A stretch of DNA of 64,000 nucleotides from the sequence record OR836606.1, one strand, 5' to 3'. A program made the translations under genes and the position numbers. The number at the start of each line of letters is the position of its first letter. Position 1 is the first letter of the stretch. This document shows positions 30,431 to 52,760 of the stretch, in pieces. The notes beneath the pieces are model-generated. The model made no database searches, had not been told where the DNA came from, and worked only from the letters and a program-made list of their open reading frames with translations. The DNA comes from Staphylococcus phage LY01.

Positions 30431-30592
30431 CATTTATATTAACTATATGAATTTCATATAGATTAGACTATATCTTATACTTCTAATAAGTATTATTATA
30501 TTTAATCGTTGGACAATCATAAAGATTGATGCTGATTAAGTTTATAAACTTTTCCAGCAATTAATAATATTTATACTGAGCCATTAAAATTA
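30431..30592 (-). ncRNA. miniature group I self-splicing intron (162 nt) in nrdE
   Basis: On the minus strand, in order: IGS GGCUCAG pairing with exon end CUGGGU (terminal U.G), P AAUUGCUGG, Q AUCAGCAUC, R GUCCAACGAUUAAAUA, S GAUAUAGUCU, P9 hairpin CUAUAUG/CAUAUAG, 3' tail ending ...AUAAAUG. Splicing yields ...SYVNQLG|QRNGAGALYL, a canonical NrdE junction. Confidence 0.75.
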
Positions 30593-44190: not shown

Positions 44191-45181
44191 TTACATCTCC
44201 ACGAGAAATCGCATTCTTAGTTTTTTCAATAGATTTCTTTTGGAAATTAGCTTTCTTAAGTTGAACTTCTAAATCTGATTTTAATATTCTTAATTCTTTT
44301 CTTTTTTCTTCATCATCAGTTGAATCAATTCTGTTTTCTAAAGTTTGAATTCTTTCTTCTAATACAATGATAAGTCTATTAAGTTCATTACCTTTAGTTG
44401 CATTATAAACAATTACAGTCAATAAACCTATTAAAGCCGTTTTAGCTTTACCAATACCTGCTGAACTAATTTTTAAACCAATACAGAATAAAATTCCAGT
44501 TAATAGAGCTCTTACGAATCTAATACGATTAGCTTTAGCTAATTGTTTATCATTCATATTTTTAGAAGAAGCTGTTGCTTTTTTAACAGAGCTAATTAAT
44601 TTATTTAAATTTTTTTCAGCAACTTTGGGGTCTTTAGAAGTTTCAAAACTACTATCAAGACCATCAAGATAATCTTCATCATCGTCATCATCATAAGCTT
44701 CATTAAGATAATTCATATTACCCTCCATTAAGAAGTTAATAACAGCTTTTCTTTCTAATTTAGAATCAGCAGGGCTTTCAGCTAGTGCTACAGTCAATTG
44801 TTTAAAATTAAATTCTGTATTAATATTAGAACTAAAATCTTCTTTATATAAACTATCTATGTATCCGTTATTTGGGACACGTTTATTAATATAAAGAGTG
44901 TTATATTTATCTTTTAAAAATTCTATTTTATGAAGAACCATATTAACTGCCATTTCAGACTGTTCATTTTCAATTTCAAATCTTTCTAACGAATCTTTTA
45001 AAGTAACAAGATATTTAACAGATTTTCTAACTTGATCGCTTGTAAAAGAATCCACATCTGCATACTTTTCAATGTCAATTAATTTATCATATAAATCAAC
45101 AGGAAAAGAATCATTATCTGTTTGTTCTATGAAATATTTTAAATCACTTTCTACTTCATTGAAATTCTTCAAGTATTTCAC
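44162..45181 (-). CDS. hypothetical protein with coiled coil and C-terminal hydrophobic segment (339 aa)
   Basis: ORF overlapping the start of 43582-44190 by 29 nt. Confidence 0.4.
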   Translation of the reverse strand: MKYLKNFNEVESDLKYFIEQTDNDSFPVDLYDKLIDIEKYADVDSFTSDQVRKSVKYLVTLKDSLERFEIENEQSEMAVNMVLHKIEFLKDKYNTLYINKRVPNNGYIDSLYKEDFSSNINTEFNFKQLTVALAESPADSKLERKAVINFLMEGNMNYLNEAYDDDDDEDYLDGLDSSFETSKDPKVAEKNLNKLISSVKKATASSKNMNDKQLAKANRIRFVRALLTGILFCIGLKISSAGIGKAKTALIGLLTVIVYNATKGNELNRLIIVLEERIQTLENRIDSTDDEEKRKELRILKSDLEVQLKKANFQKKSIEKTKNAISRGDVNDSGSSYDY

Positions 45182-45283
45182 ATCCTATTCATATTTTCAT
45201 TAAGGTTAATATTCTATTGTTAAAATTGCTTATCAAACATTTAAATATTCTAAATTTAATATATGAAAGGAAGTTAAATAAAT

Positions 45284-45506
45284 ATGTCTAAAGATATAAA
45301 AGCTTATCTTATTAATGAATCTAACACAACTTCTCAACCAGAAGTAGTTCAAGATAATAATAAATCGGTTAGATTCATTGCTGAGTTACAAGAAGCTGAT
45401 AGACAAAACCGTAATGGTCGTGTTTATCGTAAAGATGTTATTCAAAGTGGTTTAGATAGTCCAGTAATACAAGAAAAATTAGCAAGAAAAACTTTTTATG
45501 GTGAGT
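45284..45506 (+). CDS. head-region hypothetical protein, exon 1 of 4
   Basis: Ends ...KTFYGE. Exon end GUGAGU(U) pairs with intron IGS GGCUCAC (terminal U.G). Confidence 0.6.
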
Positions 45507-45660
45507 TTTAGGTTAAATGGCTCACATTAAATTATATTAATTGCTGGAAAAGATTATTATCTTAATCAGCATCAACTTAATACAAGTTGTTCAACGACTA
45601 AATATATAGCCTAGATGATATAGTCTAACCTTTATTAAAATGATAAAGAATAATAATTTG
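45507..45660 (+). ncRNA. miniature group I intron 1 (~154 nt, boundaries +/-3 nt)
   Basis: IGS GGCUCAC, P AAUUGCUGGAAAAG, P5 GAUUA/UAAUC, Q AAUCAGCAUC, P6 AACUU/AAGUU, R GUUCAACGACUAAAUA, S GAUAUAGUCU, P9 CUUUAU/AUAAAG, tail AAUAAUAAUUUG. Confidence 0.7.
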
Positions 45661-45920
45661 CAGGACATCCTTTAAGTGATGAACCTAAACGACAAATGTA
45701 TATTGATCAACGTAATATTTCTCATATCGTTACTAGAACATGGTGGAATGGTAATAAATTAATGGCAGAAGTAGAAACGGCACAAACAGCAGCTGGTAAA
45801 GATATGAAAGGTTTAATCGGACAAAAGTCTGACGTATCTTTCTCAATGCGTGGTTTCAGTAAAATTAATAGAACACCTTCTGGCGAAGTTGAAGTTACTA
45901 AACCTTTAAGATTAATCTGT
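45661..45920 (+). CDS. head-region hypothetical protein, exon 2 of 4 (..SGHPLSDEPKRQMYIDQ...PLRLIC)
   Basis: Frame open from 45657 upstream of the annotated ATG. Ends at the complete codon TGT. P1 of the next intron is CUGUU/AGCAG. Confidence 0.6.
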
Positions 45921-46101
45921 TAAATTGTAGCAGCTTTATATAGAAATATATATTGAAAAAGAATATTAATTGCTAAGAAGTTTAATTAAGCCAATTAGCA
46001 TCAACTTAATACAAGTTGTTCAACGACTAAATATATTTACTCTTAATAAGAGTATGATATAGTCTAATCTTAATAGTAAGATCTATTAAGTTAATATAAT
46101 G
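45921..46101 (+). ncRNA. miniature group I intron 2 (~181 nt)
   Basis: P AAUUGCUAAGAAG with compensatory Q AAUUAGCAUC (P4 covariation relative to the other copies). R GUUCAACGACUAAAUA, S GAUAUAGUCU, P9 CUUAAUAG/CUAUUAAG, tail UUAAUAUAAUG. Confidence 0.65.
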
Positions 46102-46121
46102 TACGATAAAATAAACCTTGT
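46102..46121 (+). CDS. head-region hypothetical protein, micro-exon 3 of 4 (~20 nt; only frame YDKINLV is open)
   Basis: Segment between omega-G of intron 2 (46101) and the predicted 5' splice site of intron 3 (UUGU|, IGS GCAA 10 nt downstream). Alternative lengths of 18 or 24 nt are possible. Confidence 0.4.
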
Positions 46122-46293
46122 CGCTTCTTAAAGCAATTTAAGAATGATAAAACTATTAATTGCTAAAATCTTTTATTAAAGTAATTAGCATCAACTTAAT
46201 AAAAGTTGTTCAAAGACTAAATATAGTTTATCCTTTTATAGGATAATGATATAGTCTGATCTATATTATACTAATATAGATAACATAAATGTG
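46122..46293 (+). ncRNA. miniature group I intron 3 (~172 nt, boundaries uncertain by a few nt)
   Basis: P AAUUGCUAAAAUC, Q AAUUAGCAUC, R GUUCAAAGACUAAAUA, S GAUAUAGUCU, P9 CUAUAUUA/UAAUAUAG, tail AUAACAUAAAUG(UG). Confidence 0.6.
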
Positions 46294-46645
46294 GGTAGTA
46301 ATTCCATCTCATCAAGATTCTTACATTCAAAATATTATTTCAGAAGGACACAATAATTATAATCCTAATGATTTACAAATGGTAAATGAATCAATTGATA
46401 TGTTCACTAATGGTAAAATTACTGAATTTTCTCCTAGAGAAGTTTTAACTTATATTAAAGAAAATTCAGATAATGTAAAATACATTGCTGAAGATATGGG
46501 GTTTGCTGGAGTTGATGAATCTAATATCAGTTATGATAAAGGATCTCAATTAGCTTCAATTAGAGAAAGTAATAAAACTATTAAAGTTTTCTTAGAAGAA
46601 TCTGTTCTTAATGGACTTGATGATTTCTATAGAAACTTTAAATAA
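46294..46645 (+). CDS. head-region hypothetical protein, exon 4 of 4
   Basis: Frame of annotated ORF 46289-46645. The annotated ATG at 46289 is predicted to lie within the intron 3' tail. Confidence 0.55.
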
Positions 46646-46669
46646 TATGTATGGATGTGATTAAAGGTT

Positions 46670-47383
46670 ATGTTAACCAATACAGAAATACTTAATTATA
46701 TTGAACGTGATGTAGGTTTCATGTTCACTGATTTAGAATTAAAACCTGATGATATTATTAAAACAGTGGAAAGATTCACTATTCCTACATTTAGTAAATT
46801 TCATCCTAAACAAGAAAGAGTAATTGTAAAACCAGAAGATAAAGTAGAAGGTACTACAAATATATATTATATTGATTCTGAAAATCCTATAGTTAATATT
46901 AATAGAGTAATTGGAGCTAATAATCCTATTACTAATTTAACAGGGTATGCAGGTAACATGAGCTCTTATGCAGGATTTGCTATGGGTAACCCAATTGATG
47001 GACAAATGATGTCTGATTTAATGGCGATCAATTTATCTCCATCTACTTTTAGATATCATCATCCTAATAAAATAGAAATATTGAATTCTGCTGTAATCGG
47101 TTCAGTTAATTTACTAATTGTTCTAAATACTTATCATGATAAACATTTTGGTTCTATACCAAATAATATGCATGATTATTTCTTAGAATTAGCTTCTTAT
47201 GATGTTCAAATATCATTATATGCTATGAGAAGTAGATTCCAGAACTTACAAACTACTTTTGGAGAGTTAAATCTTAATATGGATGATTTACGTGAAGCAA
47301 AAGATAAACGTAAAGAATTAGTAGAAAAGATGGAAAATTATTCTATATTTAATAGTAACAGAAAGAAATTATATTTCGGTTAA
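46670..47383 (+). CDS. hypothetical protein (237 aa)
   Basis: ORF with RBS. Strong terminator downstream. Confidence 0.5.
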   Translation: MLTNTEILNYIERDVGFMFTDLELKPDDIIKTVERFTIPTFSKFHPKQERVIVKPEDKVEGTTNIYYIDSENPIVNINRVIGANNPITNLTGYAGNMSSYAGFAMGNPIDGQMMSDLMAINLSPSTFRYHHPNKIEILNSAVIGSVNLLIVLNTYHDKHFGSIPNNMHDYFLELASYDVQISLYAMRSRFQNLQTTFGELNLNMDDLREAKDKRKELVEKMENYSIFNSNRKKLYFG

Positions 47384-50195: not shown

Positions 50196-52760
50196 TTAAT
50201 CTCCCTTCTTAACTATTGAGAATTTCAGTTCATCTCTAATCTCAATATTTTCTTTTCTATTAATTTTGTCAGTAATATTTTTATTATCAAGCGTATTTAT
50301 TTTATCTACTTTTTTAGAGTTTCCATTATATTTAATATTAGATTCATCTATCAAATTTATACTATTTTCAAATTTATCATCTAATTTAAATAATAGACTA
50401 GTATAAATTAAATCAGTTGAATAGGATTTAAATAATGTAATTAAAATAGTGATATAGTCTCTGATAAAATTAACTATACCTACAAAATTACTATTAGTAA
50501 AATACTGTTCTTTTAAATTTAAATGGTTATCAATACTGCTGACTAATTCAAAAATCCGTTCTCTAAAAATAGTTTCTCTATCAAATGTATCTTCATCGTA
50601 TATTTCCGATTCTACAATAGTATAATAATACAAATCAGGTTCTTTAAATTTAAGATAATCTGAATAAGTCTTAAAACCATTAAATACATCATTACTAGAA
50701 TTATTAATAAATAGTTGTTTATGCAGTGTAATAAATTTTTTTCTTAAATGTGGATCATCTGCATTATATATTAGTTCTTCTAGTTCTTTACGGAATTTCT
50801 CATTATGTTTATACATATCAATAATATCATAAATATTTATTAAGTCTTTATCAGAATCATCGTAAACTAATATATCTGAAATATATGATTTTAATGCAGG
50901 ATATCTAGATATTTGTTTTTTAGAAGTGTATTGATTATTTTTAATTGAATAATCTATAGATTTCCTAATTGCATTAACTATATTTTCGATAGTTTCTCCA
51001 TTTTTATTATCTTTATATCTTTTATATGATTCATTTAAAAATCTAACATTCATAACTTTAACAAAATCTTTTAATTCTTTATCAATTGAATCATCTTCAA
51101 TCATTATTTTATATACATCTTCTCTATTAATTCTTCCATCTCTTACCATTACATTTAAGAATTTCTTATATATTTTCATAAAGTTTTCATAATAAGAAAT
51201 ATTTTTAAATAAAAAGTTTCTTTCTGGTTTTGATATTTGAGTCCATAAATATCTCATGCCATCAATGATTAAATCATTTTCAATATAATATTCTAATTGT
51301 GTTGATCCATTTTCACCAGTTAGCATTTCAGAAATAAATTTAAATTGTCTTTGAGCTAAATCAGAAGATTCATATTCATTTATAATATCTTCATAACTTA
51401 ATGTATTTCTATTTTTAAATTTCTTAATATTAAGAAAATTTAGTTCTCTAGCAAAAACGATATAATCCGATTTATCAAATTGTCTAGAATAAATATAACT
51501 ACGAATATCATCTACAGTTTCTTTTATATCTGAATTAAAATTATACGCATATATATTCATATTTTTATCATTTTTAATTCTATCATTCCATTTAATATAA
51601 TTTATGACAAGAGTATTAAGCGTAACAATTCCGTCAAAAACATTAAACTTCCTAGAACTAATTCTTGTATTAGTCATATTAAAACTATCATCTTCAATAA
51701 TATTTTTATCTTCTTTCATTGAGTTAATTAAACTGTATAGAAATGATAAAGATTTACTATTATTAATTATATCTATGACAGCATCAGTAGAAAGATATTT
51801 AGTTTGTATTACGTTAAATGCTTTATCCATAATTTCTTCTTTAGTATTTCTCCAATATGGATCAAGATCAACAATTTCATTGTAACTATACTGATTATCT
51901 TTATATGGATTAAAATTGTCATTTACATTGGTTTTATAAAATTTTAAATCATTTGAATGTTTAGCTAAGTAATATTTATTAATATCAATAGAATTAATAG
52001 AGAATATTTCTTCAATTATAGGAAATATTTCATTAGTGCCTTTATTTCTAATTAATTCATTTAATCTCTTGTAAGTTCTTCTTTGATATTCAAGCGGGAA
52101 CTCGTCAAAATAATCCAAACCATTAGATATAAATGCATTTTTAAGATCCCTCTTTGTATATCTATCAACATCAAATATTCTATACATAGTTTTATTAATA
52201 TATCTATGTAAAGTTGCATTAATTAGATACATATAAAACATTTCTCTGTAATATATTTGATTATTAAATGCTCTAGTGTGAGTTACTTTTTTAAAATATT
52301 CAACTGATTCTGTATAGCTTTCCAATAATAAAGATTCTTCTTTACTATCTAGAGTCTTATTAAGTGCCTTTATTATTTGAAAATCACTAGTCGTTCTTGA
52401 ATCGTACGGATCAATATTATATAAATTTTTTAACTTACCATAATATGGATTTTTTTCTTTATATGTTCTTAATATACTATCTCTATCGAAAACTGAATAA
52501 TAATCGTCAAGAGTGTTATCTTTAGCTCTTATATATAAATCAGATTCCATCATTGAATCATTTGATTCTAATTTATCTGCCATTGATTGATCTTTAATAA
52601 TTAGACCTTGACAATACTTAATGACATCATCTAAATTTTCTATATCTTCTTCAGTAAATGCTTTATAAAAATAGAGAGGATTGTATTTTCTTAAATCATC
52701 TTTACTGAATCTATTAAAATCATTAAATTCTATAGCCATTATATCTCTTTTAATCCTCAC
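50196..52760 (-). CDS. large hypothetical virion-associated protein (854 aa)
   Basis: Long ORF with no recognisable motif. Its upstream region is the large AT-rich regulatory gap. Confidence 0.5.
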   Translation of the reverse strand: MRIKRDIMAIEFNDFNRFSKDDLRKYNPLYFYKAFTEEDIENLDDVIKYCQGLIIKDQSMADKLESNDSMMESDLYIRAKDNTLDDYYSVFDRDSILRTYKEKNPYYGKLKNLYNIDPYDSRTTSDFQIIKALNKTLDSKEESLLLESYTESVEYFKKVTHTRAFNNQIYYREMFYMYLINATLHRYINKTMYRIFDVDRYTKRDLKNAFISNGLDYFDEFPLEYQRRTYKRLNELIRNKGTNEIFPIIEEIFSINSIDINKYYLAKHSNDLKFYKTNVNDNFNPYKDNQYSYNEIVDLDPYWRNTKEEIMDKAFNVIQTKYLSTDAVIDIINNSKSLSFLYSLINSMKEDKNIIEDDSFNMTNTRISSRKFNVFDGIVTLNTLVINYIKWNDRIKNDKNMNIYAYNFNSDIKETVDDIRSYIYSRQFDKSDYIVFARELNFLNIKKFKNRNTLSYEDIINEYESSDLAQRQFKFISEMLTGENGSTQLEYYIENDLIIDGMRYLWTQISKPERNFLFKNISYYENFMKIYKKFLNVMVRDGRINREDVYKIMIEDDSIDKELKDFVKVMNVRFLNESYKRYKDNKNGETIENIVNAIRKSIDYSIKNNQYTSKKQISRYPALKSYISDILVYDDSDKDLINIYDIIDMYKHNEKFRKELEELIYNADDPHLRKKFITLHKQLFINNSSNDVFNGFKTYSDYLKFKEPDLYYYTIVESEIYDEDTFDRETIFRERIFELVSSIDNHLNLKEQYFTNSNFVGIVNFIRDYITILITLFKSYSTDLIYTSLLFKLDDKFENSINLIDESNIKYNGNSKKVDKINTLDNKNITDKINRKENIEIRDELKFSIVKKGD

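Follow-up and report, generated by a model that had tools for sequence, protein, structure and literature searches.

Three compact group I introns, two of them around a 6-nucleotide exon, predicted in the head-maturation protease gene of Staphylococcus phage LY01

In a stretch of 64,000 nucleotides of DNA from Staphylococcus phage LY01 (record OR836606.1; hereafter the window), a gene for a T4 gp21-type protease, spanning positions 45284-46645 on the plus strand, is very probably interrupted by three compact group I introns without open reading frames (ORFs), and splicing would join its exons into the coding sequence of a 280-amino-acid (280-aa) product. An original prediction, made from the letters of the window, had proposed one gene that regains a single ORF once three small ORF-less group I introns are removed, and alignment with homologues bears this out; the ORF fragments of 75, 75 and 118 aa that it listed lie at 45284-45511, 45696-45923 and 46289-46645. 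The second and third introns flank an exon of 6 nucleotides (nt), and all three introns are members of an ORF-less family with eight copies in the window.

Exon–intron structure of the protease gene

Positions 45000-47000 were compared with 50,697 phage records using BLAST and matched only nine Staphylococcus jumbo phages, none of them identical: Madawaska (94%), S6, MarsHill, PALS_2, DC4, SA1, Machias, AH12 and PB50. As these matches indicate, the window (21-33% G+C) is DNA of an S6/Madawaska-like Staphylococcus jumbo phage of the AR9-like clade. An exact-pattern scan of viral and genome contig collections revealed no further alleles, and a protein-guided scan of the viral contig collection revealed no relatives.

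PALS_2 and SA1 carry the same gene without interruption (843 nt, 280 aa). Exon boundaries were placed using BLASTN and a seven-way alignment against uninterrupted and partly interrupted alleles, and the uninterrupted genes of PALS_2 and SA1, together with the partly interrupted ones of Madawaska, PB50, Machias and AH12, fix each junction to the base:

45284-45506, plus strand: exon 1, 223 nt, ending ...GGTGAGT; 98% identical to PALS_2 nt 1-222
45507-45660, plus strand: intron 1, 154 nt
45661-45920, plus strand: exon 2, 260 nt; 94% identical to PALS_2 nt 226-485
45921-46101, plus strand: intron 2, 181 nt
46102-46107, plus strand: micro-exon TACGAT, 6 nt, encoding Tyr162-Asp163
46108-46291, plus strand: intron 3, 184 nt
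46292-46645, plus strand: exon 4, 354 nt including the stop codon, starting TGG GTA GTA; 97% identical to PALS_2 nt 490-843

The joined exons (223 + 260 + 6 + 354 = 843 nt, 280 aa) are colinear with the PALS_2 and SA1 genes, and the joined product is 98.9% identical to the PALS_2 protein. The Ser75 codon is split, its first base closing exon 1 (T|CA); exon 2 opens with CA GGA CAT (Ser75-Gly-His77, the last being the catalytic His) and closes with ...ATC TGT. Exons 1-3 each end in U and introns 1-3 each end in G (45660, 46101 and 46291). The junctions expected in the spliced RNA are GGTGAGT/CAGGACAT and ATCTGT/TACGAT/TGGGTAG.

In intronless alleles the site of the micro-exon reads TGT TAT GAT TGG. 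Madawaska and PB50 lack intron 2 and carry intron 3 directly after TGTTACGAT, so that both junctions of the micro-exon are fixed independently. The original prediction had drawn this part of the gene differently. Its exon lengths of 223 and 260 nt agree with the homologue alignment, and the 3' tails that it quoted are present (ttaatataatg up to 46101, ataacataaatg up to 46291); its 20-nt micro-exon and 352-nt last exon give way to 6 and 354 nt. According to the 20-nt version, the spacer exon would be TACGATAAAATAAACCTTGT (YDKINLV), intron 3 would occupy 46122-46293, and the product would be 12 nt longer and contain AAAATAAACCTTGT, where the 6-nt exon gives ATCTGTTACGATTGGGTAGTA across the junctions. 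Such a structure is in frame and yields an open ORF of 284 aa, and its 5' exon likewise ends in U and its intron in G, yet it is very improbable. All uninterrupted homologues read ICYDWVVIPSH and AR9 reads TWDWVIFPSH, whereas the 20-nt exon turns ICYDWVV into ICYDKINLVVV, with loss of the Trp that is present in AR9 too and insertion of KINLV, residues translated from the 5' end of intron 3, internal guide sequence included. It also conflicts with the position of intron 3 in Madawaska and PB50, and it assigns to the exon the sequence UUGUCG, which as guide pairs with CGAU|AA; a paralogous intron of the Machias RNA polymerase gene has this guide and target as well. The 20-nt micro-exon was rejected on the alignment to homologues, which, like the uninterrupted alleles, gives a product of 280 rather than 284 aa.

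Identity of the interrupted gene

The spliced ORF matches Pfam Peptidase_S77 (PF03420; 35.4 bits against a cutoff of 27) and the PHROG head maturation protease families, matches that identify the gene as one encoding a T4 gp21-type prohead protease. In gp21 the triad consists of His, Ser and Asp (PMC5694885). When aligned to the T4 gp21 chain 5jbl_A, His77 and Ser136 fall on two Ala positions, the former being the position of T4 gp21 His85, and Asp163 falls on an Asp in the region of the triad; the two Ala are presumably engineered active-site mutations. By this alignment, 4 nt separate intron 1 from the His77 codon downstream, and the Tyr-Asp163 codons lie between introns 2 and 3.

Codon differences between LY01 and PALS_2 over all exon pieces comprise 30 synonymous and 3 non-synonymous changes, an excess that points to purifying selection on the joined frame. 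Phages with interrupted alleles seem able to grow, since S. aureus is named as host in the GenBank phage records of the relatives that have intron 1, 2 or 3 alleles. It could be argued, however, that the inserts are never removed and that the gene is a decaying pseudogene or specifies separate polypeptides: the three ORFs have ATG starts, and the depositors of AH12 and PB50 annotated such fragments as separate hypothetical proteins. This explanation is scarcely credible given the 30:3 ratio, the fact that one catalytic domain would have its His, Ser and Asp dispersed over separate fragments, and boundaries that exactly fit group I rules.

Anatomy of the three introns

Each insert contains the P/Q/R/S core that the original prediction had placed there (TTAATTGCT.., AAT(C/T)AGCATC, GTTCAA(C/A)GACTAAAT and ATGATATAGTC). 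Dissection of the introns located these elements as follows:

Intron 1, plus strand: P 45537-47, Q 45564-73, R 45589-603, S 45615-25
Intron 2, plus strand: P 45966-76, Q 45993-46002, R 46018-32, S 46054-64
Intron 3, plus strand: P 46156-66, Q 46183-92, R 46208-22, S 46246-56

When aligned, the three inserts show 74% mean column identity with shared P, Q, R and S blocks, and introns 2 and 3 are 78% identical to each other. All are A+U-rich (21-24% G+C), and multiple stop codons interrupt every reading frame of each, leaving no homing endonuclease ORF. A covariance model built for the family (R1) scores them at 145.7, 141 and 152 bits, respectively.

Introns 2 and 3 have the same layout, with P1, a P2 hairpin and P3-P9 followed by a 10-12-nt tail; P1 pairs CUGU|UA with UAGCAG in intron 2 and CGAU|AA with UUGUCG in intron 3. 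The P1 of intron 1 pairs exon GUGAGU (45501-45506) with the guide GCUCAC (45520-25), and its P9 is CUUUAU/AUAAAG. Intron 1 has no P2, and only 5 nt (CCUAG) stand between P3' and J8/7 in place of P8. This P8-less form is common to the window, Madawaska, Machias and AH12; in the PB50 allele a P8 hairpin is still present (CUUAAUuuaAUUAAG), and a 10-nt insertion/deletion accounts for the difference. A 6-base-pair (6-bp) pairing of the P1 loop (L1; UUAGGU, intron nt 2-7) with the P8 remnant (GCCUAG at 45608-45613, or ACCUAG in relatives) is possible and may replace P8 in intron 1. The pairing lies weakly above chance (p ~0.02-0.05, composition-preserving shuffle), and the alleles differ by a one-sided change alone (U.G to U-A).

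Evidence for group I identity

When a 1.5-kb region around the gene was searched with the Rfam group I model (RF00028, Intron_gpI), intron 1 scored 40.5 bits (E 1.7e-8), intron 2 33.3 bits (E 2.3e-6) and intron 3 27.8 bits (E 1.1e-4). Rfam scans of the whole window were empty both at the gathering threshold and at E <= 0.1, the latter because filters are stricter on long input.

The intron boundaries themselves provide a second line of evidence. The dissection covered 15 copies of the family (eight in the window, the other seven in Madawaska, Machias and PB50), and in 15 of 15 the G of the guide faces the last U of the exon, followed by 3-6 further pairs to the intron's own exon. The guide sequence varies with the site (GUGAGU/GCUCAC, CUGU/GCAG, CGAU/GUCG, AGCAGGU/GCUUGCU and CUACUGU/GCAGUAG; other members have AGGCCU/GGGCUU, GCCU/GGGC, ACUGGGU/GCUCAGU and ACUGGGU/GCUUAGU). 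By this comparison all intron boundaries obey group I rules, with U.G in P1 and a terminal G. P10 pairing is variable, with 6 bp for intron 2 and a weak 2 bp for intron 1; for intron 3 a script counted 0 contiguous pairs, and inspection gave 4 bp (GGGU/ACCU) offset by 1 nt.

Covariation supports the predicted helices. RNAalifold and the covariance model each used 14 members, and RNAalifold recovered P3, P4, P5, P6 and P9 with compensatory changes in 16 of 28 pairs. In an alignment fitted to the model, with P7 added as a pseudoknot together with two P8 pairs, 97.7% of cells pair and P7 is invariant; double-sided changes occur in 18 of 35 pairs, a count reached by none of 500 shuffles, and controls with slid partners pair at 25-45%. 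Minimum free energy folds of each intron with its flanks recover P1, P2, P4-P6, P8 and P9 (z = -2.4, -2.7 and -5.4). P8 hairpins of differing sequence are present in 12 of the 15 members, the exception being intron 1 of the window, Madawaska and Machias, and the core sequences P4, P7, J6/7 and J8/7 are invariant or nearly so across copies.

Several points weigh against three self-splicing introns. All three score below the Rfam gathering score of 50 bits. The alignment used for pair counts was fitted to the model structure and its members are related, both of which inflate the shuffle control, but relatedness accounts neither for the slid controls nor for how many pair types occur. Splicing is a prediction from sequence comparison and modelled RNA structure. 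Intron 1, finally, has no P2 and only its 5 nt for P8, and a core without P8 may not be catalytically self-sufficient.

It is also possible, though on balance unlikely, that the inserts derive from group I introns that are no longer autocatalytic and are removed only with a phage or host protein, a maturase-like factor or chaperone, peripheral and even core elements (P2, P8) having been lost. Many reduced mitochondrial group I introns require proteins such as CYT-18. The absence of P2 and P8 from intron 1 fits such a dependence, as do the scores under the Rfam gathering score and the high A+U content, which weakens helices. On the other hand, P4, P7, J6/7 and J8/7 hardly vary across copies, P1, P3-P7 and P9 are intact and covarying, and no candidate maturase is encoded in or beside the introns.

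The 6-nucleotide exon

All six bases of the micro-exon (UACGAU) pair with a guide extension of intron 2 (AUUGUA) to form its P10. The corresponding P10 of Machias pairs exon UAUGA with guide UUAUA, a compensatory double change from C-G to U-A. The last four bases of the micro-exon (CGAU) are also the 5'-exon strand of the intron 3 P1. The two pairings are mutually exclusive, so the introns would have to use the micro-exon at different moments, presumably one after the other.

Introns 2 and 3 might instead act jointly to skip the micro-exon in a regulated manner, generating a 278-aa isoform without Tyr162-Asp163 that would be a catalytically dead, scaffold-only protease. Skipping would be in frame (837 nt, 278 aa), and the two introns are 78% identical. 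There are precedents: passages of PMC10136302 describe skipping of the 23-nt exon of Twort orf142 and of a 34-nt exon in Coxiella 23S rRNA, and passages of PMC11878797 describe it in a gene of the Bastillevirinae phage SIOphi, which is named as a polymerase at one point and as a terminase elsewhere. However, introns 2 and 3 have different guides (GCAG versus GUCG), and neither fits the 5' exon of the other (CUGU, CGAU). Dissection and inspection further show that P10 of intron 2 fits the micro-exon by 6 bp and exon 4 by only 2 bp. In engineered tandem introns, different splice-site recognition sequences suppressed skipping, according to a passage of PMC10136302. Micro-exons elsewhere in the family measure 11 nt in the Machias protease gene and 14 nt in the large terminase gene (terL) of the window, and their skipping would shift the frame; in-frame skipping is therefore not a conserved design. 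Exon skipping is thus not favoured by the predicted guide-sequence pairings, and we consider it improbable.

Insertion sites across the clade

Six different insertion sites were found in the protease gene across the clade:

After TATGGT: in MarsHill and S6, a LAGLIDADG-bearing intron of 1.17 kb that precedes the intron 1 site by 4 nt
After GGTGAGT: mini-intron 1
After the Gly codon of GE(A/S)G|H: the full-size AR9 intron, ~310 nt, Rfam 66 bits
After TGT: intron 2, also in Machias and AH12, absent from Madawaska and PB50
After TACGAT: intron 3, also in Madawaska and PB50
After TGGGT: an intron in Machias and AH12, leaving an 11-nt micro-exon

Introns 1 and 3 of the window are those of Madawaska, and the combination of introns 2 and 3 occurs in no other record of the collection. 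The Ser75 codon is AGT in PALS_2 and SA1, which have no intron near the His codon, and TCA both in the mini-intron 1 alleles, where it is split (T|CA, window 45504-45506/45661-45662), and in MarsHill and S6. This difference could reflect a co-conversion tract, immunity of an endonuclease site or the need for a splice-site U. In AH12 (L005 1777-3111) and PB50 (L006 3282-4468), the exon fragments of the protease gene are entered as individual proteins, and those of PB50 are mislabelled 'terminase large subunit' and 'homing endonuclease'.

A multi-copy family of mini-introns

The R1 covariance model gave seven strong matches in the window (E 1e-21 to 1e-26), consisting of the three protease introns, three introns in terL and one in the ribonucleotide reductase large-subunit gene. 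An eighth member, of 127 nt and without P2 and P9, was defined in terL by alignment to the uninterrupted terL of S6. The number of copies in related genomes was taken from the places matched by intron 1 in BLASTN searches: 29 in AH12, 28 in Machias, 20 in PB50, 12 in Madawaska and 10 in MarsHill; the family census of the Machias genome covers its first 50 kb. Intron 1 had no BLASTN match in S6, PALS_2, DC4 or SA1, nor outside the S6-like jumbo phages. Exons are ~90-98% identical between intron-bearing and intron-free phages.

A retron-like reverse transcriptase (MarsHill gp206) was considered as the cause of this expansion, but the gene occurs in each of the nine S6-like phages, also in those four that lack the family, and its presence therefore does not account for the difference. 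The sequence GATATAGTC at 50451 (plus strand) was considered as a further intron and was rejected by Rfam and by model R1.

The reductase intron (30431-30592, minus strand, 162 nt) lies between ...VNQLG and QRNGAGA... and has the P1 ACUGGGU/GCUCAGU. Its target, ACUGGGU, is common to it and to the third protease intron of Machias and AH12. A further pair of unannotated tandem mini-introns is present in Machias (MW349128, L012 2790-3170), separated by a 6-nt exon, GCCGAT (2982-2987). They follow the coding sequence labelled 'non-viral RNA polymerase beta-prime N-terminal', whose stop codon lies inside the first intron; joining the exons gives GMG-AD-YDGDT, the polymerase catalytic motif, and the downstream exon is unannotated. 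The downstream intron has the target CGAU and guide GUCG, the same as protease intron 3. Such shared guides and targets fit a guide-directed choice of new sites, for example by reverse splicing; trans-acting endonucleases may instead be responsible.

The window terL (39379->34797, minus strand) is split by five intervening sequences, as judged by alignment to the uninterrupted S6 terL:

39379->38738, minus strand: exon
38737->38611, minus strand: mini-intron A, 127 nt, no P2 or P9
38610->38597, minus strand: micro-exon CGTGGTTCTACTGT, 14 nt
38596->38441, minus strand: mini-intron B, 156 nt, followed by an exon of ~70 nt
38370->38211, minus strand: mini-intron C, followed by a 72-nt exon
38138->37978, minus strand: mini-intron D, followed by an exon to ~37152
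37151->35207, minus strand: intervening sequence of ~1.9 kb, followed by an exon from ~35206

The 1.9-kb insert contains a 389-aa TnpB-like ORF (36559->35393; Pfam OrfB_IS605, Cas12f1-like TNB and HTH_OrfB_IS605) downstream of group I-like R (GTTCAACGACTATCG, ~36815) and S (CATGATATAGTC, ~36685) motifs, and in this arrangement it resembles an IStron. An Rfam search of the insert was empty, and its 5' junction as placed by homology follows G, not U (...AGAG|TAACG). The closest phage-encoded relative of the TnpB-like ORF is 41% identical (Listeria phage LPJP1), and in no relative is this insertion present at the same site.

Discussion

The pathway that we infer for the protease transcript is as follows. 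Each intron would fold into a group I core comprising the P3-P7 pseudoknot, P4-P6 and P9, and would recognize its own 5' exon through a P1 of 4-6 bp with a U.G wobble at the cleavage site. Two guanosine-dependent transesterifications would then remove each intron, ending at its terminal G, and the four exons (223 + 260 + 6 + 354 nt) would join into an 843-nt mRNA for the 280-aa protease. The micro-exon would serve in turn as 3' exon of intron 2, through P10, and as 5'-exon strand of intron 3, through P1. The introns belong to one multi-copy family that has spread through LY01 and some related genomes, each copy with a guide matched to its own insertion site; in the protease these sites fall in catalytic-motif codons, one of them 4 nt ahead of His77 and the other two flanking the codons for Tyr-Asp163.

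In its strongest form, this proposal would make the mini-introns fully autonomous ribozymes of 127-184 nt, P8-less core included, that multiply by guide-directed reverse splicing into 4-7-nt targets in catalytic motifs. We regard this form as unlikely. Reverse splicing directed by the guide would explain why paralogues share target and guide, why tandem introns stand 6-14 nt apart, and why some genomes have 10-29 copies and others none. If autonomous, these introns would be smaller than any natural self-splicing group I intron known to us. Introns of 127-184 nt without P2 and P8, or without P2 and P9, would then redefine the natural minimum of the group I core, and might furnish compact parts for RNA engineering, of which permuted intron-exon circularization is an example.

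The family also has consequences for annotation and for the study of intron spread. With scores below the Rfam threshold, genes have been split by depositors (AH12, PB50) or truncated (Machias RNA polymerase beta-prime, which has two unannotated introns and a 6-nt exon within the ADYDGD catalytic motif); a family-specific model recovers mini-introns cleanly, at 112-162 bits. The 6-nt exon, all of whose bases enter the P10 of one intron and most of them the P1 of the following one, is an extreme natural test of how tandem group I introns avoid interference. The distribution of the family, with 10-29 BLAST places in five genomes and none in four near-identical ones, offers a tractable system for the spread of ORF-less introns, and the paralogues with the same guide and target are likewise useful for this purpose.

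Comparison with known systems

The original prediction likened the gene to Twort orf142, and the likeness is apt: both are genes with three introns and a short internal exon between two similar introns. The primary report of the Twort orf142 introns is reportedly that of Landthaler and Shub in 1999. Twort introns 2 and 3 are ~250 nt long with extra peripheral helices, and introns of subgroup IA2, such as those of T4 td and Twort orf142, have P7.1/P7.2 between P3' and P8 and an extended P9 periphery. The LY01 introns differ in their size (154-184 nt) and in having nothing between P3' and P8. P3' is followed by P8 in introns 2 and 3 and by the 5 nt in intron 1, and a single P9 hairpin precedes the 10-12-nt tail, features that set them apart from IA2. 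According to passages of PMC10136302 and PMC11878797, Twort orf142 contains three self-splicing group I introns in one gene, and those of PMC10136302 describe its 23-nt exon as skippable and its introns 2 and 3 as IA2. LY01 thus resembles Twort in having a structural gene of a Staphylococcus phage with three ORF-less group I introns, two similar ones around a short exon, and differs in the length of that exon (6 nt).

The prediction further placed the arrangement in a different genome context. AR9, MarsHill, Madawaska and Machias, however, have the same gene in the same phage lineage with the protease already annotated as intron-split, and GenBank carries joined protease coding sequences for MarsHill, Madawaska and Machias. 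Lavysh et al. are said to have reported in 2016 that the AR9 prohead protease gene is split by an intron. The context was already published at the level of protein alignment: passages of Korn et al. (bioRxiv 10.1101/2020.12.14.422802) list the prohead scaffold/protease as intron-disrupted in MarsHill, Madawaska and Machias. The intron passages of that report give a prediction from protein alignment, without RNA structure, intron size or family relationship. Unlike LY01, AR9 has one full-size intron (~310 nt), MarsHill and S6 have the 1.17-kb LAGLIDADG intron, and Machias and AH12 use a different third site.

To our knowledge, the smallest self-splicing group I intron is usually given as that of the Azoarcus sp. 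BH72 pre-tRNA(Ile) (205 nt). It keeps P2, P8 and P9 with tetraloop-receptor contacts, is G+C-rich and resides in a tRNA. The LY01 introns resemble it as natural group I introns cut down to little beyond the conserved core, and differ from it in that intron 1 (154 nt) lacks P2 and P8, the 127-nt terL member lacks P2 and P9, and all three protease introns are low in G+C (21-24%), the LY01 introns lying within protein-coding genes.

Small exons between group I introns have been described elsewhere. The 23S rRNA of Coxiella burnetii has tandem group I introns around its 34-nt exon (in passages of PMC10136302), and the ribonucleotide reductase gene of phiNIT1 has an 'additional small exon' (in a passage of PMC11878797). 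Passages of the latter source give Bastillevirinae introns as 350 +/- 108 nt non-coding, with one small extra exon and cases of exon skipping. Unlike the exons of Coxiella and phiNIT1, that of LY01 is 6 nt long, lies wholly within the P10 of the upstream intron and contributes four bases to the downstream P1. In the literature searched, which did not extend to older key papers, no account was found of this family of mini-introns or of their sizes, of the form without P8, or of phage exons of 6 nt. The kind of element is known, as phage group I introns and as a gene that is split in relatives; what is new is the reduced cores, the 6-nt exon and the expansion of the family.

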